DNA of 18,083 nucleotides from a virus (IMGVR_UViG_2651869755_000020), one strand, 5' to 3'; numbered from the stretch's first letter, positions 1 through 17,094 are shown. Notes: generated from the sequence alone by a model not told the origin. Numbers and translations are program-made.

Positions 1-162
1 CCAGAGCCTGAGCCATTTGAAAATAACATTATCATTGACGCCATTTTCACGTGCAATCTGTGCAACACAAGCTCCAGGTTGTGATGCCAGTTCCACCATA
101 CGAAGTTTGAATTCATTCGAATAGTTTTTACGAGGTTCTTTTCGCCAGTCCTGTAATTCCAT
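1..162 (-). CDS. IS-type transposase helper protein (HTH_Tnp_1 / IS66-family TnpA-like), N-terminal 54 codons only; gene continues past the left window edge
   Basis: Reverse-strand ATG at 160-162 opens a frame translating MELQDWRKEPRKNYSNEFKLRMVELASQPGACVAQIARENGVNDNVIFKWLRLW, which stays open to position 1. The pattern (R.YS.EFK...V.....PGA.V..IAR..GV.DN....W) matches the helix-turn-helix OrfA/TnpA proteins of IS66/IS3-type elements as I recall them. Not in the supplied ORF track because it is truncated by the window edge. Confidence 0.45.
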   Translation of the reverse strand, partial: MELQDWRKEPRKNYSNEFKLRMVELASQPGACVAQIARENGVNDNVIFKWLRLW

Positions 163-215
163 ACTTAGATGTCCGTCTATATCAGATGGGCGTCTAAGTT
201 ACCAATTCTCGTCTG

Positions 216-1346
216 ATGGCTACATACGGCGGTCAGTTTACGCTTACTTTTAAAGCCGGTACTCATACCGATATGCACGGCAAAAAACTGCCGTTCACGC
301 CAGACGATCTTGCCGCCTGCGTGAAAGCCTATGACCCGTCCGTCCATGAAGCACCACTCGTGATTGGTCATCCCAGAACGGAAGACCCGGCGTGGGGCTG
401 GGTGAAAGCCCTGTCGCTCAGCGGCGTCGATCTGATGGCAGAGCCTGCCCAGCTGGACCCGCAGTTTGCTGAGATGGTCACCGACGGACGATTCAAAAAA
501 GTGTCCGCCTCTTTCTACCTCCCGGATTCACCGTCCAATCCGAAGCCCGGCGTGCTCTACCTTCGCCATGTGGGCTTTCTCGGGGCACAGCCACCTTCCA
601 TCAAGGGGCTGAAACAGGTGTCCTTCAGTGAGCAGGAAGAAGGTGTGGTGGAGTTCGCCGACTGGCAGGCCATCACGAATGCCTCCCTGTGGGGAAAGCT
701 GCGCGATTTTCTGATCGCCCGCTTCAGTCTGGACGAGGCAGAAAAAGTCCTGCCGGAATGGCAGCTCAACAGTCTGCGCGAAGAGGCGTACCGCGACACA
801 CTGTCGCAGGATGCAGCAGGTGCACAATTCAGTGAGACAGGCCCGGGGCCGTCTTCCGCAAGTAACGAGGAATCATCGATGACAAAAGAAGAGATTGAAA
901 CCCTTCAGGAGGAGAACCGCCGCCTGAAGCAGCAGGCTGCTGATCGCGATGCGCGTGATGCACAGGTCAGACAGGAGCAACTGCATAAGGACAATGTGGC
1001 CTTTGCAGAAAAACTGGTCGCAGAGGGCCGTCTGGCTCCCCGCGCCTCCTCCGTGGTGGTTGCCCTGCTGGATGCCGTCGCCGGTGGCGACAAGCCGGTG
1101 GAGTTTGCTGAGGGGGAAAGCCGCACACCGCTGGCCACCGCCTTTCGTTCATTGCTCTCCGACGGGGAGCCGGTGATGAATTTCGCCGAACAGGCCACAA
1201 AAGAGCGTGTCGGCGACACGGTGAAGGTGGATGTGGCAGAGTTTGCGGAAGCCGATCCTGAGCGTCTGGCCCTGCATCAGAAAGCAGTGGCCCTGTCCAA
1301 AAAAGAAGGCATCAGCTATGAGGCTGCTGTCGCACGCTGCCTGTAA
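216..1346 (+). CDS. prohead protease / scaffold protein (Mu gpI-like)
   Basis: 376-aa ORF directly upstream of the major head gene. C-terminal third is strongly charged and coiled-coil-like (EEIETLQEENRRLKQQAADRDARDAQVRQEQL), typical of scaffold domains fused to a protease. No obvious Shine-Dalgarno before the ATG at 216, so the exact start is uncertain. Confidence 0.7.
   Translation: MATYGGQFTLTFKAGTHTDMHGKKLPFTPDDLAACVKAYDPSVHEAPLVIGHPRTEDPAWGWVKALSLSGVDLMAEPAQLDPQFAEMVTDGRFKKVSASFYLPDSPSNPKPGVLYLRHVGFLGAQPPSIKGLKQVSFSEQEEGVVEFADWQAITNASLWGKLRDFLIARFSLDEAEKVLPEWQLNSLREEAYRDTLSQDAAGAQFSETGPGPSSASNEESSMTKEEIETLQEENRRLKQQAADRDARDAQVRQEQLHKDNVAFAEKLVAEGRLAPRASSVVVALLDAVAGGDKPVEFAEGESRTPLATAFRSLLSDGEPVMNFAEQATKERVGDTVKVDVAEFAEADPERLALHQKAVALSKKEGISYEAAVARCL
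879..1346 (+). CDS. possible nested in-frame scaffold protein (Mu Z-like internal initiation)
   Basis: In-frame ATG at 879 preceded by GAGG at 867-870 (8-nt spacing). It sits exactly at the start of the charged coiled-coil segment (MTKEEIETLQEENRRLK...). Mu I/Z and lambda C/Nu3 use the same nested arrangement. Confidence 0.35.
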   Translation: MTKEEIETLQEENRRLKQQAADRDARDAQVRQEQLHKDNVAFAEKLVAEGRLAPRASSVVVALLDAVAGGDKPVEFAEGESRTPLATAFRSLLSDGEPVMNFAEQATKERVGDTVKVDVAEFAEADPERLALHQKAVALSKKEGISYEAAVARCL

Positions 1347-1360
1347 TTTAAGGAGAGAGC

Positions 1361-2314
1361 ATGTCTGATTACTTAAAAGGTAAACGTGTCGTTGATCCGG
1401 TACTGACCAGTATCGCCCGTGGCTATAAAAATGCCGCATTCATCGGCGAACGTATTTTCCCCGTCGTGCTGACGGACAAGGAAGGCGTGCGTGTACCGAC
1501 CTTCGGGAAAACCGCCTTTGTGGAATATGACACCGAGCGTGCCGTCGGGGCGGACAGCAATGTTCTGGTCCGTGAAAAAACAGGCACGCTGGACCTGGTG
1601 CTGGGTGAACACGATCTGGCTGCGCCGGTGGACTATCGCGAGCAGGCGGAGTCCATGTTTAACGAAGAGAGCAAGGCCATCCGTCGCGCCACGAATGGCG
1701 TGAACCTGCGCCGTGAACTTATCGCTGCCCGTCTGGCTCAGGATGAAAAGGTCTACCGTACCGGGCACGTCAAAAAACTGACAGCCAGTGATCGCTGGGC
1801 CGGTGGTAAGGGGGACCCCATCGGGGTGATTGAAGCCGGTATGGAAGCGGTCCGTACGGCCACGGGGCTGCGTCCTAACCTGATGACCATGGGGGCCGGC
1901 GTGATGGCGCTGCTGAAGTTCCACCCGGCGATTCAGGCCGCCATCGGAGCCAACGAACGCAAGCGCATCACCACAGAAATCCTGCAGGACCTCTTTCAGA
2001 TCGAAGAGATCGTCATCGGTGCCCCAGTCTCCCTGCCGTCCATGAAAGCGGCAATGGATAAGAACAGCGTGCCGGCGGATATCTGGGGAGACAATCTGAT
2101 GCTGCACTATGTCGGCAAACCGCAGCCGGGGGCGGACAGCGCGGACGAGAACGAGCCGTCCTTCGGCTACACCCTGCGTCGTAAGGGGATGCCTGTTGCC
2201 GACAAATACGACGGAGCCGGTGGCAAGGTGAAGTACTGCCGTTATACCGATATCTACAAAGTCGCCGTGGTTGGTGGCGATGCCGGGTATCTCATTACCG
2301 GTATCAGTAAATAA
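1361..2314 (+). CDS. major capsid (head) protein, Mu gpT-like
   Basis: 317-aa ORF with AAGGAG RBS upstream of the ATG at 1361, immediately after the protease/scaffold gene. Size and position match Mu-type major head subunits. Family assignment from recollection, not searched. Confidence 0.75.
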   Translation: MSDYLKGKRVVDPVLTSIARGYKNAAFIGERIFPVVLTDKEGVRVPTFGKTAFVEYDTERAVGADSNVLVREKTGTLDLVLGEHDLAAPVDYREQAESMFNEESKAIRRATNGVNLRRELIAARLAQDEKVYRTGHVKKLTASDRWAGGKGDPIGVIEAGMEAVRTATGLRPNLMTMGAGVMALLKFHPAIQAAIGANERKRITTEILQDLFQIEEIVIGAPVSLPSMKAAMDKNSVPADIWGDNLMLHYVGKPQPGADSADENEPSFGYTLRRKGMPVADKYDGAGGKVKYCRYTDIYKVAVVGGDAGYLITGISK

Positions 2315-2323
2315 GGAGGCGTT

Positions 2324-2662
2324 ATGGGAACCACTCAGCAGGTCATTCTGATCACAACCGTAACGGCAGGGGCAGCACTGGCACAGCAGCGTTTTGTCGG
2401 GGCAGATAATACCCCCTGTAAAGCCGGTGCCGCAGCGCTCGGGGTTGCCGAAGTGGATGCTGTTACCGGCGACAGCACGCCGGTGAGCGTTCTGGGCATT
2501 ATTGCTGTCGAGGCCGGGGCCGCTGTCAGCCGTGGTGTGGCTGTTCAGTCAGATGCTCAGGCCAGAGCCGTGCCGCAGTCCGGCGACGGTAAATCCTGTG
2601 GTATTGCACTTGATGAAGCCGGGGGTGAAGGCGACGTCATTCGTATCCTGCGCGGGGTGTGA
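2324..2662 (+). CDS. small head-associated protein (Ala/Gly/Val-rich; hypothetical, possible decoration or head-completion protein)
   Basis: 112-aa ORF with AAGGAGG RBS 6 nt upstream, 9 bp after the capsid gene stop. Composition is Gly/Ala/Val-rich. Function not recognised with confidence. Confidence 0.55.
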   Translation: MGTTQQVILITTVTAGAALAQQRFVGADNTPCKAGAAALGVAEVDAVTGDSTPVSVLGIIAVEAGAAVSRGVAVQSDAQARAVPQSGDGKSCGIALDEAGGEGDVIRILRGV

Positions 2663-2663
2663 C

Positions 2664-3110
2664 ATGTACTGCACCCTGGAGGATTTGCTTGCGCAGGTGC
2701 CGGAGCGGACGCTTATCGAACTCACCAGTGAAGAGATGGACTTCGACTCGCCTGCAACAGTGAATACCCGTGTGGTGGACAGCTGTATCCGCTATGCCGA
2801 CGAGCTGATTGATGCCCATCTGCGCGGACGCTATATCCTGCCACTGGCAGAGATACCGACTGTTCTGCGGGACATTGCCATCACGCTGGTCCGTTACCGG
2901 CTCTACGCCCGCCGCCCGGAAGGTGACCTCCCGGATACGGTGAAGGATGACCACAAAGAAGCGCTGCGGCAACTCAGGGAGTTACGTGATAACAGGCTCA
3001 CGCTGGGGCTGCCGTCCACTCAGAAAGATGTGCCTGAGCCTGGCGAGTTTCGTGTACGCAGTCGCCCGGCCACTTTCGGCGGTCGTGACGGTTTACTGGA
3101 GAAATACTGA
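2664..3110 (+). CDS. head-tail joining / neck protein (Mu gp36-position, DUF1320-like)
   Basis: ATG at 2664 lies 1 nt after the upstream stop (2660-2662) and is in frame with the track ORF 2502..3110. The earlier start would overlap the preceding gene by 160 bp, so the 148-aa version is preferred. Position matches Mu neck genes. Confidence 0.55.
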   Translation: MYCTLEDLLAQVPERTLIELTSEEMDFDSPATVNTRVVDSCIRYADELIDAHLRGRYILPLAEIPTVLRDIAITLVRYRLYARRPEGDLPDTVKDDHKEALRQLRELRDNRLTLGLPSTQKDVPEPGEFRVRSRPATFGGRDGLLEKY

Positions 3111-3574
3111 TGAACGTTCTGCCCGTCCTTGATGCGGTGCTGGCCCGGTTACGCGAGAAGCTGCCGCAACTGCAGGTGGAGTACTTCCCGGAGAAACCGG
3201 CTGAATATCGCCTGAACCATCCGGTTGGCGCGTTGCTGCTGAGCTATGCCGGTTCGCGCTTTGACAGGCCGGATGATACCGGTGCGGTGATCCAGTCTCA
3301 GACTATCCAGCTCTGCGTCACGGTGGTCTTCCGCCAGCTCAACGGTAAAAAAGGGGCGATTAATGTCCTGGATGCTGTCCGCCGCATTCTCGGTGGCCAC
3401 ACCCCGCCCGGGTGCCGCTGCCGTATCTGGCTGACCCGCGAGGTGTTTATCGGTGAAGTCAGGGGGCTGTGGCAATACGCCCTCGACTTCGCGACTGAAA
3501 GCATCTTTATCGAAGACAGCGATTTACCGTCCGGCCCGCTGTTAACCGAAGTGAACTATGAGGAAAGCGAGTGA
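3110..3574 (+). CDS. head/neck completion protein (Mu gp37-position)
   Basis: 154-aa ORF whose ATG overlaps the upstream stop (ATGA-type overlap at 3108-3112), indicating translational coupling within the operon. Confidence 0.55.
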   Translation: MNVLPVLDAVLARLREKLPQLQVEYFPEKPAEYRLNHPVGALLLSYAGSRFDRPDDTGAVIQSQTIQLCVTVVFRQLNGKKGAINVLDAVRRILGGHTPPGCRCRIWLTREVFIGEVRGLWQYALDFATESIFIEDSDLPSGPLLTEVNYEESE

Positions 3575-3825
3575 TGAAAGAATACCGCTATTCCGGCCCG
3601 GCCAGCGGCGTCACGCTGTCGGACGGAACCGAAATCCTGCTCTGGCCGGGGAAGACGGTTTCCCTGCCGGAGGAGCATGACTACGTGAAGGTACTGGTGG
3701 CGCTGAAGCATCTGACGCCGGTACCAGAAGATACTAAACCCGCCGTCACACCGGCTGTGCAGTCACCAAAGCGCAGAAGCAGCAGTGACAGCGAAGTGAA
3801 AACGGAGGACGCCCATGGCAGCTAA
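3574..3825 (+). CDS. small phage protein of unknown function (Mu gp38-position)
   Basis: ATG at 3574 with AGGAAA/GAGG upstream, overlapping the upstream stop. The track starts it at GTG 3571. C-terminal tail is Ser/Lys/Glu-rich. Overlaps the sheath gene start by 11 nt. Confidence 0.5.
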   Translation: MKEYRYSGPASGVTLSDGTEILLWPGKTVSLPEEHDYVKVLVALKHLTPVPEDTKPAVTPAVQSPKRRSSSDSEVKTEDAHGS

Positions 3826-5242
3826 CTATCTGCATGGTCCCGAAACCATTGAGGTGGAAAACGGAGCCCGCCCGGTTAAAACGGTGAAATCTGCCGTTAT
3901 TGGCCTGATTGGTACCGCCCCGATGGGGGATGTCAATACGCTGGTACAGTGCCTGTCTGAGAAAGACGCAGCGGCATTTGGCAGCCAGTTCACCGGCTTT
4001 ACCATTCCGCAGGCGCTGGATGCGATTTATGACCATGGTGCAGGCACCGTTCTGGTCATTAACGTCCTCGACCCGGCGAAACATAAAACGGCGATCGAGG
4101 ATGAGGTGGTTACCTTTGACAAATCGACAGGGCAGGCCAGACTGGCGCATCCGGTTGTCGCTAATGTGGTGGTGAAAAACAGTGAAGGCAGCACCACCCA
4201 CACGGCGAACACGGACTACCGTGTTGATGCGCAGGCGGGTGTGCTCACGAACCTGGGCAAGGCTATTGAGGCCGGTGGCAGCGTGAAGGTGAGCTATGAG
4301 TACGCGGACCCGTCGAAGGTGACTGCGGCGGACATCATCGGCGGGGTGAACAGCGCCGGAAACCGAACCGGCATGAAGCTGCTTAACGACAGCTTCAACC
4401 TGTACGGCTATTTCGCCAAAATTCTGATTGCGCCGGTGTTCTGCACCCAGAAGAGTGTCGCAGTTGAGCTTATCGCCATGGCAGAGAAGCTGGGCGCGGT
4501 AACCTACATTGATGCGCCTGTCGGTACCACCTTTGCACAGGCTCTGGCAGGTCGTGGCCCGGAAGGCACCATCAACTTCAATACCAGCTCCGACCGCGTC
4601 CGTCTGTGCTATCCGCATGTGAAGGTATATGACCCGGTGACAAACACAGAGCGTCTGGAGCCGCTCAGCCAGCGTGCAGCAGGTCTGCGTGCCAGAGTCG
4701 ATCTGGACAAGGGCTACTGGTGGTCATCCTCCAATCAGGAGATTCTGGGGATCACCGGCGTGGAGCGCCAGCTGTCCGCGATGATTGATGACCCGCAGAG
4801 TGAGGTGAACCTGCTTAACGAACAGGGGATCACCACGGTATTCAGCAGTTACGGCAGCGGCCTTCGTCTGTGGGGTAACCGGACGGCAGCATGGCCAACG
4901 GTCACCCATATGCGTAACTTTGAGAACGTTCGCCGCACCGGTGATGTGATCAACGAGTCCATTCGTTATTTCAGCCAGCAGTACATCGACATGCCGATTA
5001 CTCAGGCGCTGATTGATGCACTGACGGAGTCGGTCAACGCCTACGGTCGCAAAATGACTGGTGATGGTGCGGTACTGGGCTTCCGTTGCTGGTTTGATCC
5101 GGCCCGCAATCCGGAGACGGAGCTGGCCGCCGGGCACCTGTTGCTGAGCTACAAATATACGCCACCACCGCCGCTGGAGCGACTGACGTTTGAGACTGAG
5201 ATCACCTCGGAATACCTGTTAACCCTGAAAGGGGGCAACTGA
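3815..5242 (+). CDS. contractile tail sheath protein
   Basis: 475-aa ORF with GGAGG RBS at 3803-3807. Size and position (immediately before a roughly 170-aa tube gene) are diagnostic of myovirus sheath proteins. Confidence 0.85.
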   Translation: MAANYLHGPETIEVENGARPVKTVKSAVIGLIGTAPMGDVNTLVQCLSEKDAAAFGSQFTGFTIPQALDAIYDHGAGTVLVINVLDPAKHKTAIEDEVVTFDKSTGQARLAHPVVANVVVKNSEGSTTHTANTDYRVDAQAGVLTNLGKAIEAGGSVKVSYEYADPSKVTAADIIGGVNSAGNRTGMKLLNDSFNLYGYFAKILIAPVFCTQKSVAVELIAMAEKLGAVTYIDAPVGTTFAQALAGRGPEGTINFNTSSDRVRLCYPHVKVYDPVTNTERLEPLSQRAAGLRARVDLDKGYWWSSSNQEILGITGVERQLSAMIDDPQSEVNLLNEQGITTVFSSYGSGLRLWGNRTAAWPTVTHMRNFENVRRTGDVINESIRYFSQQYIDMPITQALIDALTESVNAYGRKMTGDGAVLGFRCWFDPARNPETELAAGHLLLSYKYTPPPPLERLTFETEITSEYLLTLKGGN

Positions 5243-5763
5243 TGTCAAAGATTGAGATAAACCGCATCACGAATGCCAACATCTATCTGGATGGTACTAA
5301 CCTGCTGGGACGGGCTGAGGAAGTCAAACTCCCCGATGTCTCCATGATTATGCAGGAACACAAGGCGCTGGGGATGGTGGGTAAGGTGGAACTCCCGGCT
5401 GGTTTTGACAAGCTGGAAGGCGAAATCAAATGGAACAGCTTTTACCGCGATGCGATGCTGTCTGCCGCGAACCCGTACAGGTCGCTGGCACTGCAGTGTC
5501 GTTCCAGCGTCCAGCGCTACAGCTCGCAGGGGCTGATTGACGAAATCCCGCTGGTCACCTTCCTGACGATTATGTTCAAGAAGAACCCGCTGGGGACGTT
5601 CAAACAGCACGAGAACGCCGAGTTCTCCAGTAGCTTCACCTGCACGTATATCAGACAGGTACTGGATGGTGAAGAGCTGCTGCAACTGGACTATCTGGCC
5701 AACATCTTCCGGGTCGGCGGTGTTGATCAACTGACTGACTACCGTATCAATATCGGGGGCTGA
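5242..5763 (+). CDS. tail tube protein
   Basis: 173-aa ORF whose start overlaps the sheath stop. Classic sheath-tube gene pair. Confidence 0.8.
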   Translation: MSKIEINRITNANIYLDGTNLLGRAEEVKLPDVSMIMQEHKALGMVGKVELPAGFDKLEGEIKWNSFYRDAMLSAANPYRSLALQCRSSVQRYSSQGLIDEIPLVTFLTIMFKKNPLGTFKQHENAEFSSSFTCTYIRQVLDGEELLQLDYLANIFRVGGVDQLTDYRINIGG

Positions 5764-5765
5764 CG

Positions 5766-6047
5766 GTGAGTGTTGAACTGACGGATAAAGGAGGACGATG
5801 TGCGGCACTGGGCATGTCAAATGGTACGTGGTTTACCCTCCTTGATATTCCGGGGGTGGAAACCCTTTTTAATACCCGTAAAACCAATGACCCGATTGAC
5901 TGCACACGTTCAAAGGCCCGCAAACTGGCGGATTTGATTGAAGCATGGGAGCCTCCCGACCACTGGTTCTCCGGCATCGGCAAATCTGAGGGAAAGACGC
6001 TTCTCATCGCTTTCCTGCGTAACTGCAAGGGGTTTCGCACTTGCTGA
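5766..6047 (+). CDS. small hypothetical protein (about 77-93 aa, four Cys); possible accessory (moron-like) gene between tube and chaperone
   Basis: ORF in operon orientation starting at GTG 5766 or in-frame ATG 5814 (AAGGAGGA at 5787-5794). Followed by a hairpin terminator candidate. No family recognised. A 97-aa ORF on the opposite strand covers the same DNA, so the coding strand is not certain. Confidence 0.35.
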   Translation: MSVELTDKGGRCAALGMSNGTWFTLLDIPGVETLFNTRKTNDPIDCTRSKARKLADLIEAWEPPDHWFSGIGKSEGKTLLIAFLRNCKGFRTC

Positions 6048-6053
6048 CATCAC

Positions 6054-6080
6054 AGGGGCTCCGGCCCCTTCTTCTTAATC
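6054..6080 (+). terminator. candidate intrinsic terminator (GC-rich hairpin AGGGGC-TCCG-GCCCCT followed by TTCTTCTT)
   Basis: Perfect 5-6 bp G/C stem at 6054-6069 followed by a T-rich run interrupted by C, directly after the small ORF stop at 6047. Confidence 0.4.
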
Positions 6081-6144
6081 TCCTTTAATATCCGTCACGC
6101 GCTTCTCCCGACATACTGCCCTGAACTTACACAGGAGCACAATC

Positions 6145-6480
6145 ATGTCACAGACCCCATCCGATACTTTTAAATTGTCTTATCCCTTCACCACTGCTGC
6201 AGGCACCAGAATTGAGCTGGTTGAACTGAAACGCCTGACGGTAAAAGACCTGAAGCAGGTGCGCAAAATCAGCAAAAACCCGGCAGACTGGGACGAACCG
6301 CTGATTGCCCGCAGTACTGGTCTTCTCCCGGAAGATCTCGACAATATGGATCTGGCTGATTACCTGCAGTTACAGAAACGATTTCAGCTCATCACGGGGA
6401 TGGGTGAGAGCAACCAGGGCGCTGACGCAGGCGCAGGGGCTGCTGGCGAGATGGTTCCGGTTTCAGCCGGGGGAGATTGA
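6145..6480 (+). CDS. tail assembly chaperone (position equivalent to lambda G / P2 E / Mu gp41)
   Basis: 111-aa ORF with AGGAG RBS 8 nt upstream, located between the tube and tape measure genes. Acidic protein, as expected for tape-measure chaperones. Confidence 0.6.
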   Translation: MSQTPSDTFKLSYPFTTAAGTRIELVELKRLTVKDLKQVRKISKNPADWDEPLIARSTGLLPEDLDNMDLADYLQLQKRFQLITGMGESNQGADAGAGAAGEMVPVSAGGD

Positions 6481-6562
6481 TGCCCTCGATACTGACGATC
6501 TGGAGATGTGGCTGGAGCAGGCTGAAGAGCAAATCAAAAGCGAGTACGGCGACAAATCATAG
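6305..6562 (+). CDS. overlapping second frame; candidate frameshift extension of the tail assembly chaperone
   Basis: Open frame overlapping 6305-6480 in the +1 frame relative to the chaperone and continuing 27 codons beyond its stop (...RFQPGEIDALDTDDLEMWLEQAEEQIKSEYGDKS). Protein-like acidic tail. Position matches the conserved chaperone frameshift of tailed phages. Confidence 0.35.
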   Translation: MPAVLVFSRKISTIWIWLITCSYRNDFSSSRGWVRATRALTQAQGLLARWFRFQPGEIDALDTDDLEMWLEQAEEQIKSEYGDKS

Positions 6563-6637
6563 TACAGACAGCCGCCAGTAGCGGCTGTTCTGCGTTATCC
6601 CCTCACGTCTTTTCACCTTCCCCGGAGGTTAACCACT

Positions 6638-9600
6638 ATGTCGGGACAGTTTTCAGTCGGCGTTGTTATCGGCGGGATGATTGGCAGCACATTCCGTTCT
6701 GCAATGAGCGGTACCCGCCGTGCGCTTGATTCCCTGAGCGATACCTCACGCCGCCTGCAGGAACGTCAGAACGCTTTAACCCGTGCAACAGAACGTTATG
6801 GTCAACTGGGTTCTTCCCGGATGCAGCATCTCAACAGCGAGCTGCTGCGGGTAAGCCGCACCATGGAGCAAATTGAGCGCCAGCAGCGCCGTCTGTCAGC
6901 GGCATCCGCTACCAGTGATGCGCTGAAAGCTAACCGCATGGCGCTGTATGGTCAGGGGATTGAAGCGTATGGCATGGCACAGACTGTTTATCATACGGTT
7001 TCCCCTGCCGTTCAGCAGTCCATGTCTTTTCAGGACAAAATGATTGATATGTCGATCACCGCAAAATATGACAATAAAACGCGGGATGCACTTGCCGGAC
7101 AGATAAAAGGCTGGGCGCTTAAATACAATCAGTATCAGGATGAGCTGCAGGAGGCGGTGGGTTCACTCATCAGCGACAATATTGATAATGTGTCAGATAT
7201 CGGTTTTCTGATGCCGGATATTGCCCGCGCGGCAACGGCAACACGCACGTCTGCTCAGGACTGGGCAAAAGTGGCCGCAGTCTGGCAAAACTCCCTGAAA
7301 GGTGCGGCCAGAGATTTTGGTGCCGTTCAGAATATTATGGCTTATGCCGGTGACCAGGGGTCATTTGAAATCCCGGATCAGGTCAAGTGGATGCAGTCCC
7401 TGGCCCCAATGATGGCGGGTCTTGCCAGTGGAAAAGAGGCTGTTGCTGAAATCGGGGCCAGTCTCCAGATAGCAAAAATCGGTGCAGGTTCCACCGACGA
7501 AGCAGCCAATAATTTTAAAAACTTTCTTACCAAAATTTTTGCCCGCGATACTCAGAAACAGTTTGCTGATCTGGGTATTGATTTGCAGGGATCTATTGCG
7601 AGTTATAAAGCTGCGGGGATCTCTCCGATTGAAGGGATGTTGAGTGTTATAGAACGTTACCTCAATGCCAAAAGCCCCGAAGCGCTGGCCGGCTTCAAAT
7701 CAGCCATGAAAATAAAGAATGATACGGCAAGAGATGAGGCACTTCAGGCTCTGGCGAAAAACTTTGGTCTGGGCGATATGTTCGCGGATATGCAGGTCAT
7801 GGCATTTATCCGCCCGATGCTGGCCAACATGGACAGATATCGAGAGATCCGTGCCGGTGCTCTCAGGGCTGCGGATAACGATTTGCTTGCCAGTGCTTAT
7901 GATCAGCGGCTGAAATCTCCCCTTGAAGCCACTAAAACACTTATGGTCAGCAGTCGCGATCTGGCAATTACGCTGGGCGATCAATTAGCTCCATCTTTTA
8001 TTTCTCTGACTCAGGAACTGCTCCCACTCATTCAGGGGACAAAACACTGGGTAGCGACTCACCCGCAATTTGTCAGTGGGGCTTTTAAGCTCATCAGTGC
8101 GCTCCTTGCGATTAAGATAGCGACTATTGGTCTCAAACTGGGGCTGAATCTCCTTATTTCCCCCTTTGTGAACGTCTGGAAAACTACTGTTTTACTCCGG
8201 ACCAACTGGCATCGACTGACTACCGCACTCGGAGAAGGTGGCAAATTACGCTGGCTTGTCACTGGATTCAGCCGACTGACCAGCGGAGGACTGAAACTCA
8301 GCAAAGTTCTGGCGGGCAGCCTCGTTCGCGGTTTTATGAGCGCTGCACGTGCCGTTCTCTGGATTGGGCGAGCGCTGATGATGAATCCCATCGGTCTCGT
8401 TATCACCGCTGTCGCGACAGCAGCTTACCTTATCTACCGCAACTGGGGGGCTGTCAGTGGTTGGTTTAAACAGCGCTGGGCTGACATTCAGGAAGCCTTT
8501 AACGGCGGCATTGTGGGAATTGGTAAGTTGCTGATTAACTGGTCGCCGGCAGGCCTGCTCTATAAAGCCTTTGCGGCTGCGCTGAAATATTTCGGCGTTG
8601 CTCTGCCGGCAAAGTTCACCGACTTCGGTGGCCATCTTATCGACGGTCTGATTAACGGTATCAAAAGCAAATGGGGGTCGCTCAAATCCAGTGTAACCGG
8701 AATGGGTGACAGCATCAGTAGCTGGTTTAAACAGCGCTGGGCTGACATTCAGGAAGCCTTTAACGGCGGCATTGTGGGAATTGGTAAGTTGCTGATTAAC
8801 TGGTCGCCGGCAGGCCTGCTCTATAAAGCCTTTGCGGCTGCGCTGAAATATTTCGGCGTTGCTCTGCCGGCAAAGTTCACCGACTTCGGTGGCCATCTTA
8901 TCGACGGTCTGATTAACGGTATCAAAAACAAATGGGGGTCGCTCAAATCCAGTGTAACCGGAATGGGTGACAGCATCAGTAGCTGGTTTAAACAGTGCTG
9001 GGCTGACATTCAGGAAGCCTTTAACGGCGGTATCGCGGGAACTGGTAAGCTGCTGATTAACTGGTCGCCGGCAGGTCTGCTCTATAAAGCCTTTGCAGCT
9101 GCGCTGAAATATCTTGGTGTTGATCTGCCGGCAAAGTTCACCGACTTCGGTGGCCATCTTGTCGACGGTCTGATTAACGGTATCAAAAACAAATGGGAGT
9201 CGCTCAAATCCAGTGTAACCGGAATGGGTGACAGCATCAGTGGCTGGTTCAGCGAAAAGCTGGGCATTCATTCGCCGAGCCGCGTGTTTATGGGCTTTGG
9301 TGACAATATCGCGCAGGGGGCCGCCATTGGCCTGCAGCGGACCACTCCGCTTGCAGCTCTGGCCGGGCAGCGAATGGCCAGTGAACTGCTCCCCAGAATG
9401 CCCGTGAGCATTCAGGGGCCAGAAATACGGGATAACACTTCAGGTGTTCGCTTCAGTATGCCGTTGCCCGATATCAATGGGTTTATGTCGTCTGCTAAAA
9501 ATGCGATCGGAGCCGTAATCAATAGTTTGTCTTCCATGCCCGTTATTCCGCTCTCCACCCGGGCATCGATTTTACCAGGGCAACGTCTGGCAAATGAGAT

Positions 9601-9850
9601 GACACCGGATGTTCCCCGTATCCCCTCGCCTGAAATCCTGGCTGCCGGATATTCAGGCCGTGGTGCAGCTGCAACCGGCGGTGGAACGTCTGGTGGTATC
9701 CAGGTCAGCTTTAATCCTCAGTTTTTCCTCAATGGCAGGGAAACCACAGCGCCTGCAGGACTGACTGGTGCCCTGAATATGAGTCTGCATGAGCTGGAAA
9801 AAATGCTGGAGCGTCTGCTGGCTCAGAAACAACGTAAGGAGTACCGCTGA
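6638..9850 (+). CDS. tail tape measure protein
   Basis: 1070-aa ORF with GGAGG RBS, the largest gene, directly downstream of the chaperone pair. Has a long helical N-terminal half and internal tandem repeats. Start of the downstream gene overlaps its stop. Confidence 0.9.
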   Translation: MSGQFSVGVVIGGMIGSTFRSAMSGTRRALDSLSDTSRRLQERQNALTRATERYGQLGSSRMQHLNSELLRVSRTMEQIERQQRRLSAASATSDALKANRMALYGQGIEAYGMAQTVYHTVSPAVQQSMSFQDKMIDMSITAKYDNKTRDALAGQIKGWALKYNQYQDELQEAVGSLISDNIDNVSDIGFLMPDIARAATATRTSAQDWAKVAAVWQNSLKGAARDFGAVQNIMAYAGDQGSFEIPDQVKWMQSLAPMMAGLASGKEAVAEIGASLQIAKIGAGSTDEAANNFKNFLTKIFARDTQKQFADLGIDLQGSIASYKAAGISPIEGMLSVIERYLNAKSPEALAGFKSAMKIKNDTARDEALQALAKNFGLGDMFADMQVMAFIRPMLANMDRYREIRAGALRAADNDLLASAYDQRLKSPLEATKTLMVSSRDLAITLGDQLAPSFISLTQELLPLIQGTKHWVATHPQFVSGAFKLISALLAIKIATIGLKLGLNLLISPFVNVWKTTVLLRTNWHRLTTALGEGGKLRWLVTGFSRLTSGGLKLSKVLAGSLVRGFMSAARAVLWIGRALMMNPIGLVITAVATAAYLIYRNWGAVSGWFKQRWADIQEAFNGGIVGIGKLLINWSPAGLLYKAFAAALKYFGVALPAKFTDFGGHLIDGLINGIKSKWGSLKSSVTGMGDSISSWFKQRWADIQEAFNGGIVGIGKLLINWSPAGLLYKAFAAALKYFGVALPAKFTDFGGHLIDGLINGIKNKWGSLKSSVTGMGDSISSWFKQCWADIQEAFNGGIAGTGKLLINWSPAGLLYKAFAAALKYLGVDLPAKFTDFGGHLVDGLINGIKNKWESLKSSVTGMGDSISGWFSEKLGIHSPSRVFMGFGDNIAQGAAIGLQRTTPLAALAGQRMASELLPRMPVSIQGPEIRDNTSGVRFSMPLPDINGFMSSAKNAIGAVINSLSSMPVIPLSTRASILPGQRLANEMTPDVPRIPSPEILAAGYSGRGAAATGGGTSGGIQVSFNPQFFLNGRETTAPAGLTGALNMSLHELEKMLERLLAQKQRKEYR
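8462..9244 (+). repeat. three tandem 261-bp (87-codon) in-frame repeats inside the tape measure gene
   Basis: Unit begins TGGTTTAAACAGCGCTGGGCTGACATTCAGGAAGCC at 8462, 8723 and 8984. Copies 1 and 2 differ at a single base (AAAAGC vs AAAAAC). Copy 3 carries about a dozen substitutions. Confidence 0.9.
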
Positions 9851-10734
9851 TGTTTGCCGTACTGGGTGATATTGAGTTTGAGCTGATTACCTACTGGGAC
9901 GGCTTCGAGGCCACGTTCGGCGTCGATTATGCGGAGCATGCCCGCATCGGGGGTAAGCCTGGCCTGCAGTTCGTCGGCGACAGGCTGGACGAAATCCAGA
10001 TAACTCTGGTTTTCCATCAGCATTATTGTGTACCCGATGTGGAGCTGGCGAGACTGCGAACAGCCATGAAAGCCCATCAGGCACTGGCGCTGGTCTTCGG
10101 CAACGGTGACTATCGCGGCTGGTTCGTGATTACCGATGTGACTGCAACCAGCGAGCAGACTGACAGTACCGGCAACGTGCTGGCTGTCAGTGCCACCGTG
10201 TCTCTCCGGGAATACACCGGTGACCCGAAAAATCCTCTGCAACCACCGGCAATACGCACGAAGCTCCCGGGTGTCGGGGCGGTCTCCGGTGCCATTCCTT
10301 CACCTTCCGGGGTGGCGCAGTTCATCCGCAACGGCGTCAACTATGCGAAACAGGCGCAGTCTGTACTCCAGACCACTATCAGCGCCGTTCGAGTGACACA
10401 GAAAATGAAGGATAACCCCGTTGTCGCACTGACCCGTGTGCCGGGGCTGATGAGCGGACTGGGTAATATCTCCGGGGCTCTGGGGAAAAGTGTTCCGGCG
10501 TTTAACGCACTCTCTGAATCCATGCCCGATGCCATCAGTCTGGCCAGAACAGCCAGCGAAGCAGCCACGTATGTACAGCAGGCACAGTCTGCGCTGAGTG
10601 GTGTGGACAAAAGAAATATTGCAGGTGCTCTGGATACCGTTTCCGGGCAGCTTAACGCCGTCGGAACAGCATTCAACCGCATGTCTCCGGGATTAAGTGC
10701 AATGGCCGCCAGAATACTGACGAGGAGTGTGTGA
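9850..10734 (+). CDS. tail protein with P2 gpU-like N-terminal domain (Mu gpN / DNA-circularisation protein position)
   Basis: 294-aa ORF with start overlapping the TMP stop. N-terminus (MFAVLGDIEFEL...GKPGLQFVGDRLDEIQITLVFH...GNGDYRGWFVITDV...SLREY) follows the gpU family pattern as I recall it. Sits immediately after the tape measure gene as in Mu. Confidence 0.6.
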   Translation: MFAVLGDIEFELITYWDGFEATFGVDYAEHARIGGKPGLQFVGDRLDEIQITLVFHQHYCVPDVELARLRTAMKAHQALALVFGNGDYRGWFVITDVTATSEQTDSTGNVLAVSATVSLREYTGDPKNPLQPPAIRTKLPGVGAVSGAIPSPSGVAQFIRNGVNYAKQAQSVLQTTISAVRVTQKMKDNPVVALTRVPGLMSGLGNISGALGKSVPAFNALSESMPDAISLARTASEAATYVQQAQSALSGVDKRNIAGALDTVSGQLNAVGTAFNRMSPGLSAMAARILTRSV

Positions 10735-10946
10735 TGTTTCTTGAACATGTTACCCGTGACGGAGAGCGCTGGGATTCGCTGGCATGGCAGTACTACGGTG
10801 ACCCGCTGGGCTATCCCCGGATTATTGCCGCCAATCCGCACGTGGCCATCACGCCGGTGCTGCCCTCCGGGCTGTTGTTACTGATCCCGGTGATTGAGGC
10901 TGAAGAAGCCCGTACAGAAGAGGATATTGCCCCATGGCTGAGATAA
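10731..10946 (+). CDS. tail protein X-like small protein (LysM-like fold family)
   Basis: 71-aa ORF with GAGGAG RBS and ATGA overlap with the upstream stop. Sequence (RWDSLAWQYYGDPLGYPRIIAANPHVA...LPSGLLLLIP) resembles P2 gpX-type proteins that precede gpD homologues. Confidence 0.55.
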   Translation: MMFLEHVTRDGERWDSLAWQYYGDPLGYPRIIAANPHVAITPVLPSGLLLLIPVIEAEEARTEEDIAPWLR

Positions 10947-12106
10947 ACAGCACTGCGCAAGTCACATCAGCGTTAACCGGCGTCAGCGATGTGCTGACAC
11001 CGGTGTTCACTCTGTGGTATCTGCAGAAAAACATCACCTCTGATATCGCGCCTTATGTCACCCGTGTGACCTGGAGCGATAACATCAAAAATGAGTCCGA
11101 TACCATTGAGGTGGAGCTGGACGACACCGATGGCCGCTGGCTGGATAAGTGGTATCCGGGCAAGGGTGACACGCTGACGCTGAAAATGGGCTATCAGGAC
11201 GAGAAGCTGCTGTCCTGCGGTACGTTCTCTATAGACGAGATCGAAGTGAGTTCGCCCGCTTCCGTTGTTTCTATCCGTGGGGTGGCCACCTCGGTTAACA
11301 GTGCCCTGCGGACTAAAACCAGTCGTGGTTTTGAGAACACCACGCTGGCAGCTGTTGCGGGGCGGATTGCCAGAAAGCACCGGCTGAAACTGGTGGGCAG
11401 CATTGAGTCCATCAGAATCGACCGGGTGACCCAGTATGCTGAAACCGACGTGGGTTTTCTGCGCCGGCTGGCCAGCGAGTATGGTTATGCAGTGAAAGTG
11501 GTCAGTGACCAGCTGATTTTTTCTCATCTGGCCACACTGCGCAGTCAGGAGCCGGTCAGGCAGTTAAAACCGCAGGATGTGGCCCGCTTTTCCCTGCGTG
11601 ACACCATCAACCGGGTCTATAAATCTGCAAAGGTAAAACACCAGAAAAGCAGCAGTAAAAAACTGATCGTCTACGAAGCTGATGGTGGTACCCGTGAAAG
11701 CGACAAAAAGCTCAAAGGTGGTAAGGTTACCAGCGCTGACTCACTTAAAGTTAACAGCCGCGTCAGCGACCCGGACAGTGCCCGGATTAAAGCGGATTCA
11801 GCACTGGCCAGACATAACGAATACCAGCAGAACGGCTCCCTGACGCTGACGGGAACACCTCAACTGACAGCAGGCAACAAAATTGAACTGGTGGGTTTTG
11901 GGCAGTTATCCGGGCCATGGCTCATAACCACTGCCCGCCATGCGTTTGACCGTAACAGCGGCTACACCACAGAGCTGGAAGTGGCACGGGGGCCGATCAC
12001 ACAGGGCAAGGCGAAGAAAGGTAAAAAAATCGGCAAAACCCGGATGCTGACCATCTATAAACCGGACGGCAGCACGTCCACAGTAATAAGAGAGAAGAAA
12101 AAATGA
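10934..12106 (+). CDS. tail/baseplate hub protein, P2 gpD-like (Mu gpP position)
   Basis: 390-aa ORF following the X-like gene and preceding the spike gene. Lys-rich C-terminus. Order X-D-V-W-J-I matches Mu/P2-type baseplate modules. Confidence 0.65.
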   Translation: MAEINSTAQVTSALTGVSDVLTPVFTLWYLQKNITSDIAPYVTRVTWSDNIKNESDTIEVELDDTDGRWLDKWYPGKGDTLTLKMGYQDEKLLSCGTFSIDEIEVSSPASVVSIRGVATSVNSALRTKTSRGFENTTLAAVAGRIARKHRLKLVGSIESIRIDRVTQYAETDVGFLRRLASEYGYAVKVVSDQLIFSHLATLRSQEPVRQLKPQDVARFSLRDTINRVYKSAKVKHQKSSSKKLIVYEADGGTRESDKKLKGGKVTSADSLKVNSRVSDPDSARIKADSALARHNEYQQNGSLTLTGTPQLTAGNKIELVGFGQLSGPWLITTARHAFDRNSGYTTELEVARGPITQGKAKKGKKIGKTRMLTIYKPDGSTSTVIREKKK

Positions 12107-12699
12107 CTGGTGTCACTCGTCAGGTCGGTACGGTCAGTGCCGTTGATGCCGACAGGGTTCAGGCCCGCGTTCGTCTGCCTGAATGCGATAACCTGCGCAC
12201 AAACTGGCTTAACGTGCTGCAGCGCAATACCCAGGATAACAAAGATTACTGGCTCCCTGACGTGGGGGAGCAGGTTGAGGTGCTGCTCGATGCCAACGGC
12301 GAGGATGGTGTTATTCTGGGCGCGGTGTATTCAGACGTCGATAAACCACCGTTCAGTGACAAAAATATCCGGGGAACCCGGTTTGCTGATGGTGCAGAGT
12401 ACAGCTACAACCGGAAGACGCACACTCTGATCATCCGGGGCGGCATTGAGCATATTGTCATTGAGTGTGGTGCTGATGTGGTATTGAAAACACAGAAAGC
12501 CACGATTGACGCACCGGAAACCGAACTTACCGGAGATCTGCGTGTCAGGGGTAAGCTGATTTACGAAGGAGGCATGGCGGGTTCTGGTGGTGAAGGTGTT
12601 ACCGCGACCATCCATGGCAATATCGAGATTAAAGGGAATGCCCATGCCACGGGCAGTATGTTGTCTGATGGCGAAAACTCCAGCCACCACTCCCACTGA
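12103..12699 (+). CDS. baseplate spike / assembly protein V-like (Mu gp45 position)
   Basis: 198-aa ORF with start overlapping the upstream stop. Size and sequence character (OB-fold-like N-terminus, Gly-rich C-terminal tip ending SSHHSH) fit gpV-type central spike proteins. Confidence 0.7.
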   Translation: MTGVTRQVGTVSAVDADRVQARVRLPECDNLRTNWLNVLQRNTQDNKDYWLPDVGEQVEVLLDANGEDGVILGAVYSDVDKPPFSDKNIRGTRFADGAEYSYNRKTHTLIIRGGIEHIVIECGADVVLKTQKATIDAPETELTGDLRVRGKLIYEGGMAGSGGEGVTATIHGNIEIKGNAHATGSMLSDGENSSHHSH

Positions 12700-12753
12700 G
12701 CTTTTTAAACGCCTTTAATATCAGCGTTCCCGCACGGGGGCAATACTGCCCCC

Positions 12754-13101
12754 ATGAAAACAACCTCAGTATTCTGGCAACCGACCCTGCAGGCTCCCGG
12801 CGAAATTGTCCGGGGGCTGGATGATATCCGGCAGGCGATTCAAATTATCCTGCGGACTCCCCGCGGCAGCGACCCGCATCGCCCGGAGTTCGGCAGCAAT
12901 CTGCATCTTTATATCGACTGGCCTGTAGACCGGGCCATTCCGCATGTGGTGCGCGAATCCGTCGATGCCATCCGACGCTGGGAGCCCCGCTGCCAGCTTA
13001 TGTCAGTTAAACCCGCCGTCGACGGCGAACATCTTACGCTCCGGGTGAGCTGGAAAGGCTCAGACGGACAGACCCGGACTCAGGAGTTGCTATGGCGCTG
13101 A
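12754..13101 (+). CDS. baseplate wedge protein, gpW / T4 gp25-like
   Basis: 115-aa ORF. Size and position between the spike and the J-like gene are typical of gp25/W lysozyme-fold baseplate proteins. Downstream gene overlaps its 3' end. Confidence 0.7.
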   Translation: MKTTSVFWQPTLQAPGEIVRGLDDIRQAIQIILRTPRGSDPHRPEFGSNLHLYIDWPVDRAIPHVVRESVDAIRRWEPRCQLMSVKPAVDGEHLTLRVSWKGSDGQTRTQELLWR

Positions 13102-14195
13102 CAGAACCCGATTTTATTGAACGCGATGCCGACAAAATCACGGCAGAAATGATTGCGAAGTATGAAGCGGATACCGGCAAAACGCTGTACCCGGCACAGG
13201 CAGAACGTCTGCTGATTGATCTGTGGGCCTATCGCGAAATGCTGGTCAGGGTTGCGGTACAGGAGGCAGCAAAGCAGAATCTGGTCGCCTTTTCACGAGA
13301 GCCGATGATTGATTACCTCGGAGAACTGGTTGGTGTATACCGCCTTGCCGCGCAGCCTGCCACCACCACACTTCAGTTCTCTGTGGATGAGGCACTGACC
13401 ATTGATGTGCTGATCCCGGCAGGCACCCGCGTCAGCGCTTCCGACAGCGTTATTTTTGCCACCGATACAGATGTGGTACTGAAGGCCGGATTGCTGCTGG
13501 TCAATGTCACGTCCACCTGTACCGAACCCGGTACCGCTGGTAACGGCTGGCAACCTGCGCAGGTCAGTCAGTTACTCGATGAGATTGATAACGTCGACCT
13601 GCTGGTGAGCAATCTGACGGCCAGTTCCGGCGGTTCAGAACAGGAAGACGATGACAGGCTCCGGGAGCGTATCAGGCTGGCCCCGGAGTCATTCACCAAT
13701 GCCGGAAGCCGTGGCGCATACCGCTTTCATGCCATGCAGGCCCATCCCAACATTGTCGATGTTGCTGTGCTTTCCCCGGTTCCCGGGACCGTAGATCTGT
13801 ATCCGCTGCTCAGTACCGGTCTGCCGGACGGCGGTGTTCTCACGCTGGTAGAGAGTTTCTGCTCTGATGAGAAAGTCAGGCCACTCACTGATACAGTGCG
13901 GGCTAAAACACCAGTGAAGGTGGATTACACCATTGAAGCCAGGATTACGATCTATCGTGATCAGGATGCCAGGTCTGTAAAAGATGCCGCTAACAGCGCC
14001 ATACAGAACTGGGTGGCATCACGTGCCGCCACGCTGGGGCGTGATATTGTCCCCAGCCAGATTATCAGTGCATTGTCCGTTTCCGGGGTGTACCAGGTTG
14101 AACTGGTGACACCGGCACTGAGGGTGGTGGCAGAAAACGAATGGGCAAACTGTACGGCGATCACACTTAACATGAGTGGAGTGTCTGATGACTGA
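13092..14195 (+). CDS. baseplate protein J-like (Mu gp47 position)
   Basis: 367-aa ORF with AGGAG RBS, overlapping the upstream and downstream genes. Size and position are typical of Baseplate_J family proteins. Confidence 0.75.
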   Translation: MALTEPDFIERDADKITAEMIAKYEADTGKTLYPAQAERLLIDLWAYREMLVRVAVQEAAKQNLVAFSREPMIDYLGELVGVYRLAAQPATTTLQFSVDEALTIDVLIPAGTRVSASDSVIFATDTDVVLKAGLLLVNVTSTCTEPGTAGNGWQPAQVSQLLDEIDNVDLLVSNLTASSGGSEQEDDDRLRERIRLAPESFTNAGSRGAYRFHAMQAHPNIVDVAVLSPVPGTVDLYPLLSTGLPDGGVLTLVESFCSDEKVRPLTDTVRAKTPVKVDYTIEARITIYRDQDARSVKDAANSAIQNWVASRAATLGRDIVPSQIISALSVSGVYQVELVTPALRVVAENEWANCTAITLNMSGVSDD

Positions 14196-14766
14196 GCCAT
14201 TACAACTCCCGCCACCGCTTGAGGGTGATATCAGTCTCAGGACGCTGGGAAGACTGGCAGGGCGGCTGGATAACATCGACCTGAGCGTACTGATGGTCTT
14301 TCTCGTCGATATCGTCGACAGTTCTGCGCTGCCATGGCTGGGCGAGCAGTTCTCACTGTCTGGCGATGGCTGGGAGCTGGCGGAATCGGACGATGTTCGC
14401 CGCATGCTTATAAAAGCAGCCATCGAACTACACCGGTATAAAGGGACGCCGTGGTCAATCCGGGAAGTTATCCGCCGTTTTGGCTTTGGTGAAGTGGATC
14501 TGATTGAAGGCACAGGTCGTCTCAGTTACGACGGCAATCGCAGCTATAACGGACTGTTTGTTCATGGAGATGCAGCCGCCTGGGCGGTTTATCGCGTTAT
14601 TCTGAAACAGCCCATTACTAACGATCAGGCCGCGATGCTGCGTCAGACGCTCGCTGCATTTGCACCGGCCCGCTGCCATCTGGCCAGCCTGGAGTATCAG
14701 TCTGTGGCCATTCGCTATAACAATACCGCCATCCATGATGGCAGTTATAACCACGGGAGCAGTTGA
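14188..14766 (+). CDS. baseplate/tail protein I-like (Mu gp48 position)
   Basis: ATG at 14188 (MTEPLQLPPPLEGD...) is in frame with the track ORF that begins at GTG 14176. It overlaps the upstream stop by 8 nt. 192 aa, immediately before the tail fiber gene as in P2 (I-H) and Mu (R-S). Confidence 0.65.
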   Translation: MTEPLQLPPPLEGDISLRTLGRLAGRLDNIDLSVLMVFLVDIVDSSALPWLGEQFSLSGDGWELAESDDVRRMLIKAAIELHRYKGTPWSIREVIRRFGFGEVDLIEGTGRLSYDGNRSYNGLFVHGDAAAWAVYRVILKQPITNDQAAMLRQTLAAFAPARCHLASLEYQSVAIRYNNTAIHDGSYNHGSS

Positions 14767-14768
14767 TT

Positions 14769-16391: not shown

Positions 16392-16415
16392 AAACGTTGG
16401 TTTAGGAGAAGGCTC

Positions 16416-16457
16416 GGCACACCAACAGGCAATGCAGAGCCTTCCCCCAAACCAACG
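16416..16457 (-). repeat. right inverted repeat of the invertible cassette (core AA at 16454-16455), about 65 bp upstream of the invertase start
   Basis: GGCACACCAACAGGCAATGCAGAGCCTTCCCCCAAACCAACG is the reverse complement of the left repeat with 2 mismatches. Placement next to the invertase gene mirrors gixR/gin and hixR/hin. Confidence 0.7.
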
Positions 16458-16521
16458 TTTATCTCTCAAATCCTCCCCACATTATCTCAGTACTTTAACC
16501 ACTCAAAAGGGAGTATTTTTA

Positions 16522-17094
16522 ATGCTGATTGGCTACATACGTGTGTCAACAAATGACCAAAACACAGATTTGCAACGCAATGCATTAATGTGCGCAGGAT
16601 GTGAACAGATTTTTGAGGACAAAATGAGCGGAACCAAGTCGGAACGACCAGGCCTGAAACGCGCTTTAAAGTGCCTTAAAAGAGGGGATACATTGGTGGT
16701 CTGGAAGCTGGATCGGTTGGGTAGAAGAATGAAACACCTCATTGCTCTCACAGAAGAGCTACGCGCAAAAGGTGTCAATTTTCGCAGTCTGACGGATTCA
16801 ATCGATACCAGCACTCCGATGGGAAGGTTCTTTTTTCATATGATGGGTGCACTGGCAGAAATGGAGCGTGAACTGATAGTTGAGCGCACGCTGGCAGGAC
16901 TGGCTGCTGCGCGAGCACAAGGAAGAGTTGGAGGACGTCGCCCGAAACTGACGAAGGAGCAGCATGAGCAGATCGCAAGATTGCTCCAGAAAGGGTATGA
17001 CAGAAAGCGGCTGGCAATTATCTATGATATTGGACTGTCAACGATCTACCGCTACCACCCTGTTGGGACTGTCATAACGCAACCTGAAATGTAA
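16522..17094 (+). CDS. site-specific DNA invertase, serine recombinase of the Gin/Pin/Cin/Hin family
   Basis: 190-aa ORF from ATG 16522 (AAAGGGAG RBS). Begins MLIGYIRVSTNDQNTDLQRNAL..., with GDTLVVWKLDRLGR and the C-terminal HTH, near-identical in pattern to Gin/Pin as recalled. The track start at 16432 adds 30 non-conserved residues and overlaps the inverted repeat, so it is rejected. Confidence 0.9.
   Translation: MLIGYIRVSTNDQNTDLQRNALMCAGCEQIFEDKMSGTKSERPGLKRALKCLKRGDTLVVWKLDRLGRRMKHLIALTEELRAKGVNFRSLTDSIDTSTPMGRFFFHMMGALAEMERELIVERTLAGLAAARAQGRVGGRRPKLTKEQHEQIARLLQKGYDRKRLAIIYDIGLSTIYRYHPVGTVITQPEM

Follow-up and report, generated by a model that had tools for sequence, protein, structure and literature searches.

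The left end of an 18,083-nt stretch of viral DNA (IMGVR_UViG_2651869755_000020; the whole stretch is hereafter called the window) places the start of a transposase-like gene directly before phage head genes. This raises the question of whether an insertion sequence (IS) has come to lie beside the head gene cluster, has removed part of it, or has broken one of its genes, and of what followed for the phage. We found that a complete ISEc23 has simply inserted into the gene I analogue of a Mu-like prophage, and we regard this account as a whole, together with its expected consequences and the apparent hotspot at the insertion site, as very likely correct.

ISEc23 and its junctions with the protease gene

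Window 1-1400 matches E. coli LC-1302-2020 (NZ_CP091756.1) at 100% identity by BLAST, and RefSeq/PGAP annotates at this locus, on one strand, tnpA, tnpB and a 537-aa 'IS66-like element ISEc23 family transposase', the annotation from which we take the name. The element in the window is the known ISEc23, annotated in RefSeq beforehand. The features of the window and the basis of each assignment are as follows.

1-162, minus strand: 5' part of tnpA, 54 codons of a protein of 141 aa in full (translation, HMM matches, RefSeq WP_000422741.1)
163-247: non-coding, tnpA-proximal end of ISEc23 (inverted repeat, junction reads, IS length)
224-247: 24-bp terminal inverted repeat, ATACGGCGGTCAGTTTACGCTTAC, with the outermost GTAAGCG on the reverse strand at 241-247
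248-255: right copy of the 8-bp target duplication TTTTAAAG (single copy at the empty sites L002 and L134)
IS-prophage junction k-mers: CGCTTACTTTTAAAGCCGGTAC and CACATTTTTAAAGGTAAGCGTC
216-1346, plus strand: chimeric open reading frame (ORF) of 376 aa, the native gene encoding 371 aa (translations, phrog_976)
1361-2314, plus strand: major capsid protein gene, Mu T analogue (phrog_1005 'major head protein', E 9.3e-130; Pfam Phage_cap_E)
2324-17172, plus strand: rest of the prophage late region (RefSeq annotation of the identical region, Pfam)
17173-18083: host chromosome with the prpR 3' fragment and yahO (17808-18083, minus strand) (annotation; Pfam AAA_lid_14/HTH_8 and YdgH_BhsA-like)

The complete tnpA product (WP_000422741.1) is encoded at L001 11737-12162, where position 12001 corresponds to window position 1, so the 3' end of tnpA, tnpB and tnpC lie to the left of the window, outside it. 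The reverse-strand translation of window 1-162, MELQDWRKEPRKNYSNEFKLRMVELASQPGACVAQIARENGVNDNVIFKWLRLW, matches Pfam HTH_Tnp_1 (E 7.7e-12), NCBIfam IS66_access_TnpA ('IS66-like element accessory protein TnpA'; E 6.7e-21) and a second IS66 TnpA model (E 2.5e-15). These matches bear out the first-pass annotation, which had read the start of an HTH-type transposase helper here, and its distance of 54 bp between the tnpA ATG at 162 and the ATG at 216 is likewise correct. Pfam matches of the three ISEc23 products (HTH_Tnp_1; TnpB_IS66; LZ_Tnp_IS66/zf-IS66/DDE_Tnp_IS66) confirmed the three-gene layout of tnpA (HTH), tnpB and tnpC (DDE transposase) on the minus strand, and all tested features that define the IS66 family are present. 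The copy is 2,532 bp long and is 100% identical across its 2,532 bp to one that an ST131 genome carries within the Ag43 gene, where the target duplication is GTTGTAAA; copies of this 2,532-bp unit are found at thousands of positions in 3,000 E. coli genomes, and plasmids carry it too. Thus the element itself does not differ from ISEc23, while its context does, being an exact prophage site that recurs across lineages.

An ISEc23 end 100% identical to window 1-247 is also found at or in the side tail-fibre gene of the lambda-like phages 4A7, D2, 1W, 3W and Lambda_4C10 (records LR595861, LR595864/NC_049946, OM475427, OM475428 and OM475430), so packaged phage genomes can carry ISEc23 with them.

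The imperfect terminal inverted repeats of the element (GTAAGCGTCAACGGAGCACCGTAT versus GTAAGCGTAAACTGACCGCCGTAT) match at 20 of 24 positions and start with GTAAGCG. With slashes at the IS boundaries, the locus reads ...CACATTTTTAAAG/GTAAGCG...CGCTTAC/TTTTAAAGCCGG, with ...ATGTCAGCCATTCACATTTTTAAAG/GTAAGCGTCAACGG... at the left junction and ...GGTCAGTTTACGCTTAC/TTTTAAAGCCGGTACTCAT... at the right, and the left copy of TTTTAAAG lies 2,532 bp leftward, beyond the window. Inverted repeats and a target-site duplication, for which the first-pass annotation had advised looking, are thus both present, with TTTTAAAG on either side. They also move the end of the element: GTAAC at 198-202, previously offered as a possible IS terminus, was rejected as internal, 45 bp inside the element, the real end being the GTAAGCG on the reverse strand at 241-247 according to the inverted and 8-bp direct repeats. 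The feature accordingly does not stop at 215 but reaches 247, or 255 when the target duplication is counted. BLAST matches to IS-free prophages start exactly at window 248 (625 genomes), the uninterrupted site reads ATGTCAGCCATTCACATTTTTAAAGCCGG with a single copy of TTTTAAAG (in strain EBJ003, ...GGGACAGCAAAATGTCAGCCATTCACATTTTTAAAGCCGGTACT...), and excising the IS together with one copy of TTTTAAAG restores the uninterrupted prophage sequence. This is a simple insertion of ISEc23 with an 8-bp target duplication, and nothing was deleted. For comparison, the 8-bp repeats are intact in 5 of 13 metagenomic ISEc23 copies.

The IS had been thought to abut gene I, but it sits within it, 24 nt past the native ATG. 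The native protease gene (1,116 nt) starts MSAIHIFKAGTHTD (L002, L135, L136, L137), and the insertion point falls in its codons 6-9, 17-24 nt after the start codon, which now heads a 22-codon stub ending inside the IS. The ATG at 216, previously taken for the native protease start, lies inside the inverted-repeat end of the IS and is by chance in frame with the target gene. Codons 1-11 of the chimeric ORF (216-248) come from the IS end and the native head maturation protease/scaffold resumes at F12, giving the N-terminus MATYGGQFTLT-FKAGTHTD with 11 IS-derived residues in place of MSAIHI. The match to phrog_976 'head maturation protease' (E 1.9e-159) covers residues 12-375 and so begins where native sequence resumes; Pfam and NCBIfam searches with this ORF gave no significant family. 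Judged by this match, the interrupted gene is the head maturation protease/scaffold gene, the analogue of Mu gene I. Because of the in-frame ATG, annotation pipelines see an apparently intact 376-aa gene, which PGAP labels 'hypothetical protein/peptidase'. The general lesson is that a broken gene can pass for an intact one when the end of an IS contributes an ATG in frame.

Recurrence of the insertion at one base pair

Among 5,426 complete E. coli genomes, identical junctions in the same orientation are present in five, at three chromosomal sites, and each of these sites is also occupied by IS-free sibling prophages:

prpR site, with IS: LC-1302-2020 and MMC-J-0105 (the lineage of the window)
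prpR site, IS-free sibling: FDAARGOS_1249 (1+1 mismatches)
aroA site, with IS: AVS0528
aroA site, IS-free siblings: 358 other genomes, including ST131 strains (JJ1887: 0 mismatches in 22.4 kb)
CP4-44 site, with IS: 254D-1 and 360D-1
CP4-44 site, IS-free sibling: FORC_031 (0 mismatches in 21.8 kb)

Alignments of the IS-positive prophages with their IS-free siblings extend to the left and to the right of the IS, overlap by 8 bp and contain 0-2 mismatches over about 17-22 kb, a presence/absence polymorphism that points to recent mobility of ISEc23. No more than 202-353 bp away from the IS, the three IS-positive prophage lineages already differ in sequence. Two ISEc23 alleles occupy the site, as the 254D-1 copy differs by 4 SNPs, and an unrelated copy has 3 of these as well, and a resident ST131 copy of ISEc23 is identical to the AVS0528 insert. 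Since IS-free siblings at the same sites have identical or near-identical flanks, we infer independent insertions in situ: the same insertion probably arose separately in at least three resident prophages, which would make the site an ISEc23 hotspot.

Alternatively, a single ancestral insertion could have been spread by an IS-carrying phage or imported by homologous recombination, with no repeated transposition. Junctions identical to the base would fit such a history, as would the identity of the L005 and L007 flanks from -321 to +832; recombination partners exist, given that the site is present in 637 of the 5,426 genomes, and so do donors, given the 55 contigs that carry the chimeric protein of the prpR lineage. 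No imported tract is visible, however, within the about 22 kb of identity to IS-free siblings at the same site, and import from a donor of the prpR type would require one crossover no more than 202 bp left of the IS and another no more than 353 bp right of it. The distinct 254D-1 allele and the resident ST131 copy that already equals the insert also argue against a common origin, as does the lack of transposase genes in the 254D-1 prophage, unless that deletion came later. We consider a single ancestral insertion unlikely and favour independent insertions. In its own right, the 254D-1 prophage (L007 5512-5674) is without the DDE transposase, the ExeA-like ATPase, Gam and adjoining early genes, and therefore cannot transpose on its own.

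The insertion is rare. The 160-bp hotspot region was found in 637 genomes, 630 of them intact, five with ISEc23 and two incomplete (these may be divergent relatives). In public assemblies the window-type chimeric protein is on 55 contigs, and native forms are on at least 1,000 and on 637. IMG/VR holds 53 intact sites and none with the junction or any other disruption, and no sequenced phage record has ISEc23 at the protease-gene site.

ISEc23 was never found in the opposite orientation at the hotspot site, and the hotspot has no match among 78 metagenomic ISEc23 flanks. Another independent ISEc23 is present in strain 23070 (L003 1569-4100), where it interrupts the G-like gene 424 bp before the hotspot, points the same way and has the duplication GGCTGTTG; this case was found because it falls inside the searched region and is no evidence for regional enrichment. 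No IS insertion was found in the G-I region of true Mu-type prophages in a small sample of 44 genomes.

The interrupted prophage and its late genes

To the right of the capsid gene, the late region holds head decoration/adaptor, sheath, tube, tape measure, baseplate and tail fibre genes and a Gin-like invertase (16522-17094), and the right prophage terminus, ...GCGCGGCGCATCA, ends at window 17172. Matches to prpR alone begin at the prophage-host junction, prpR being interrupted by the prophage. In EBJ003 the prophage measures 37,511 bp and has TG...CA termini (left TGAT(T/C)AGAC..., right ...GCGCATCA; L134 3527/41037, L007 about 3165/38563) and a 6-bp host duplication; the 6-bp host repeats are CGTGAC at gcd and CATTTC at CP4-44. 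The host duplication typical of Mu is 5 bp. One 37.5-kb IS-free prophage of this family lies at NZ_CP086334.1 2385526-2423036. The family occupies four different chromosomal sites (gcd, prpR, aroA and CP4-44), and it encodes, by annotation, a DDE transposase (integrase catalytic domain), an ExeA-family ATPase, Gam and a Mor-family activator. The Mu-type head order of portal, F, G, I (protease) and T (capsid) was confirmed by Pfam (Portal_Mu, Phage_Mu_F, Phage_tail_S for the G-like gene, Phage_Mu_Gp36) and PHROG matches (portal, minor head, protease, major head), and a P2-like contractile tail and a Gin-like invertase are present. The host of the insertion is a BcepMu/Mu-like transposable prophage of 37.5 kb, integrated in prpR.

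Repeats and rearrangements are found elsewhere in this prophage. The tape-measure gene contains three tandem 261-bp in-frame repeats (window 8454-9249, 96% matches), whose copy number varies by lineage (genes of 3,213 nt versus 2,952 nt), and the tail-fibre gene has 168-bp tandem repeats (window 14997-15713); a 300-bp repeat-length difference in the tail-fibre gene separates the window from LC-1302-2020, the two being near-identical otherwise. When window 14763-17094 is compared with 16185-20068 of the IS-free sibling FDAARGOS_1249 (L135), a rearrangement is seen in the tail-fibre/invertible-segment region: the last segment of the tail-fibre gene in the window is one that the sibling carries inverted, roughly 1.4-1.9 kb including the Caudo_TAP tail-fibre assembly gene is missing between those segments, and the Gin-like invertase is directly next. 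In MMC-J-0105 a second IS, of the IS3 family, breaks the tape-measure gene of the prpR-site prophage (L006 28357-29570).

The G-like gene is followed by two terminator-like hairpins and a 214-bp intergenic region that leads to the protease gene, and for this reason the late promoter is probably in the G-I intergenic region. The Mu promoter PI sits before gene I. Two blocks of this region, GTGATTTATCATTGCCAG...GGGGCTGTATTACCTTTATAAAGGCTTTACAGCC and TTTTCTAAAGCAGATTAAAA (L134 21990-22240), are invariant in the relatives Klebsiella phage KP12 and Phi06_2974 B, whose overall identity is only about 80%, and this suggests that they may be conserved cis-elements, e.g., a terminator, a late promoter or another site. 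An Rfam scan of the window returned no RNA family. The start of the protease gene itself has strong hairpin potential (L134 22200-22320, the right-hand part of which is window about 193-313; z = -3.3 for a 121-nt DNA fold), with AAAATGT-N9-ACATTTT around the ATG followed by CGGTA-N4-TACCG and GGCA-N6-TGCC; these hairpins could be a translational control element or could be relevant to IS targeting.

An antisense IS of 2.5 kb now stands between the protease gene and its native promoter region, ribosome-binding site and start codon. There is no Shine-Dalgarno-like sequence ahead of 216, and a simple scan with a crude consensus detected no outward, plus-strand promoter near the IS end. The native start signals would then drive only the 22-codon stub, leaving the protease and the downstream late genes behind 2.5 kb of untranslated antisense IS. 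The major capsid gene, first downstream of the chimeric ORF, is exposed to any polar effect of the IS. Because the start signals are 2.5 kb away and neither a Shine-Dalgarno-like sequence nor a predicted outward promoter takes their place, a strong polar defect is expected; late expression is probably strongly reduced and the prophage crippled, and it is plausible that the insertion makes the prophage defective, as the first-pass annotation had supposed. The chimeric ORF is intact and in frame, and read-through could therefore still yield some protease. Further decay is evident in the missing tail-fibre assembly gene of the window prophage and in the IS3-family insertion of its sister strain.

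The insertion might instead be silent, if the ATG of the IS restored a functional protease and read-through or an outward promoter kept the late operon on, leaving the prophage viable. In favour of this, the reading frame continues through the fusion and the protease family is matched in full from residue 12 on, no intrinsic terminator is predicted on the plus strand within the IS, and ISEc23 is tolerated in viable lambda-like phages, in the side tail fibre gene. Set against this are the missing Shine-Dalgarno-like sequence and plus-strand promoter and 2.5 kb of untranslated antisense RNA, as long untranslated RNA invites Rho termination. The count of no disrupted against 53 intact sites in IMG/VR, the lack of a phage record with the insertion, and the decay seen in the window lineage and its sister strain also weigh against viability. 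We judge a silent insertion to be very unlikely, and a crippled prophage remains our preferred reading.

That the IS deleted Mu-type head genes (F/G equivalents, portal, terminase) and left a truncated cryptic prophage could be supposed from the window alone, where the IS stands in the place of the sequence left of gene I; it has next to no probability and was ruled out, because the G-like virion morphogenesis, Mu-F-like minor head, portal (Portal_Mu/DUF935) and terminase-like genes are present directly left of the IS in the identical genome, their protein accessions being those of the IS-free prophages, the 8-bp duplication is perfect, and IS-positive and IS-negative siblings are colinear. 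Of the earlier proposal of an IS insertion or IS-mediated deletion beside the head genes, only the insertion stands. The leftward extension that had been recommended does reach portal and terminase genes, and the intact Mu-type head module that had been named as evidence against the proposal does exist, past the IS. The prophage is interrupted, not truncated, and its head module is kept. Equally negligible is a reading of the 54-residue fragment as a phage HTH regulator with no transposase component: it is a small HTH protein with weak matches to the BcepMu gp16 family and the Brinker DNA-binding domain, but IS66 TnpA models score best, tnpB and the DDE_Tnp_IS66 transposase are next to it, all within the inverted repeats, and the same unit recurs across E. 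coli genomes and on plasmids.

Target choice and comparison with known systems

A preference matrix for ISEc23 was built from metagenomes, using 78 distinct right-end and 23 left-end flanks. The target bias is weak (S-N-W-W-W-W-N-S, about 1-2 bits), and under this matrix the hotspot ranks 2,931st-10,670th of 74,922 position/orientation choices, with an expected share of about 2-3e-5 of insertions into the prophage and a probability of about 1e-9 for two further coincident insertions. Primary-sequence target specificity was rejected as the cause of the recurrence, given a matrix this weak and a hotspot that ranks this low under it. The metagenome flanks contain a possible second recurrent ISEc23 site, AGAAATGTAAT..., where indels and mixed IS66 relatives occur.

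The hotspot lies at 49.93-49.95% of the 37,511-bp prophage, adjoining the G-I intergenic region. [quoted passage not shown] The Mu gyrase cut site is annotated 20 bp after G and 177 bp before I, near the genome centre, and the hotspot resembles it in being central and at the G-I boundary. An ungapped comparison over the 29 bp of the Mu cut site gives 21 identities (Mu, AAAATC/AGCC-N6-ATTTTTTAA; prophage, AATGTCAGCC-N6-ATTTTTAAA), AGCC-N6-ATTTTT(T)AAA being common to both, and ATTTTTAAA occurs once in the prophage. This likeness is in the top 0.3-1.2% of prophage windows but is not the first, and the prophage motif overlaps the protease start codon, unlike the Mu SGS, which is just after G. A gyrase-motif scan with the published 133-bp consensus was dropped, as it ranked the known Mu SGS only 247th-672nd. 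Conservation of the hotspot was also discarded as a diagnostic, for although it is high, at 98%, in KP12 and Phi06_2974 B, conservation extends over the entire 5' third of the gene.

By analogy with Mu, an SGS equivalent might explain the hotspot, a tentative proposal that we lean against. The reason proposed is that DNA at the apex of the supercoiled prophage domain would be sharply bent or wrapped, and an IS landing at that point would cut off the head of the late head/tail operon and also break up the gyrase site, so that the prophage would be immobilised. Somewhat more doubtful is the full combination of a base-pair-precise, orientation-specific ISEc23 hotspot, with at least three independent insertions, that coincides with a central SGS equivalent. 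Lying at the exact centre of a Mu-like genome, the site hints at a connection with gyrase-organised DNA that can be tested directly. An ISEc23 in a prophage is by itself a routine finding, and the recurrence is the potentially interesting part. If the insertions are independent transpositions, target choice in the IS66 family would have a strong structural or protein-directed component, and we know of no description of such a component.

Among named phages, Escherichia phage PhiKM (PQ738613.1) is closest, with 99.9% nucleotide identity over window 248-3000 and no IS. The window prophage shares with PhiKM and with E. coli BcepMu/Mu-like prophages, such as those at the aroA site of ST131, a DDE transposase with an AAA+ partner, a Mor-type activator, a Mu-type head, a P2-like tail, a Gin-like invertase, TG...CA termini and unrelated insertion sites; it differs from them in having ISEc23 in the protease gene and in being without the tail-fibre assembly gene. 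Insertion of an IS into an essential region is one way in which prophages are expected to become domesticated, and the classical IS1 'X' mutants are an example of IS insertions that inactivate Mu. The insertion described here is like those mutants and like IS-decayed prophages in placing an IS in an essential region of a resident prophage, and unlike them in occupying the same base pair, in the same orientation, in three lineages.
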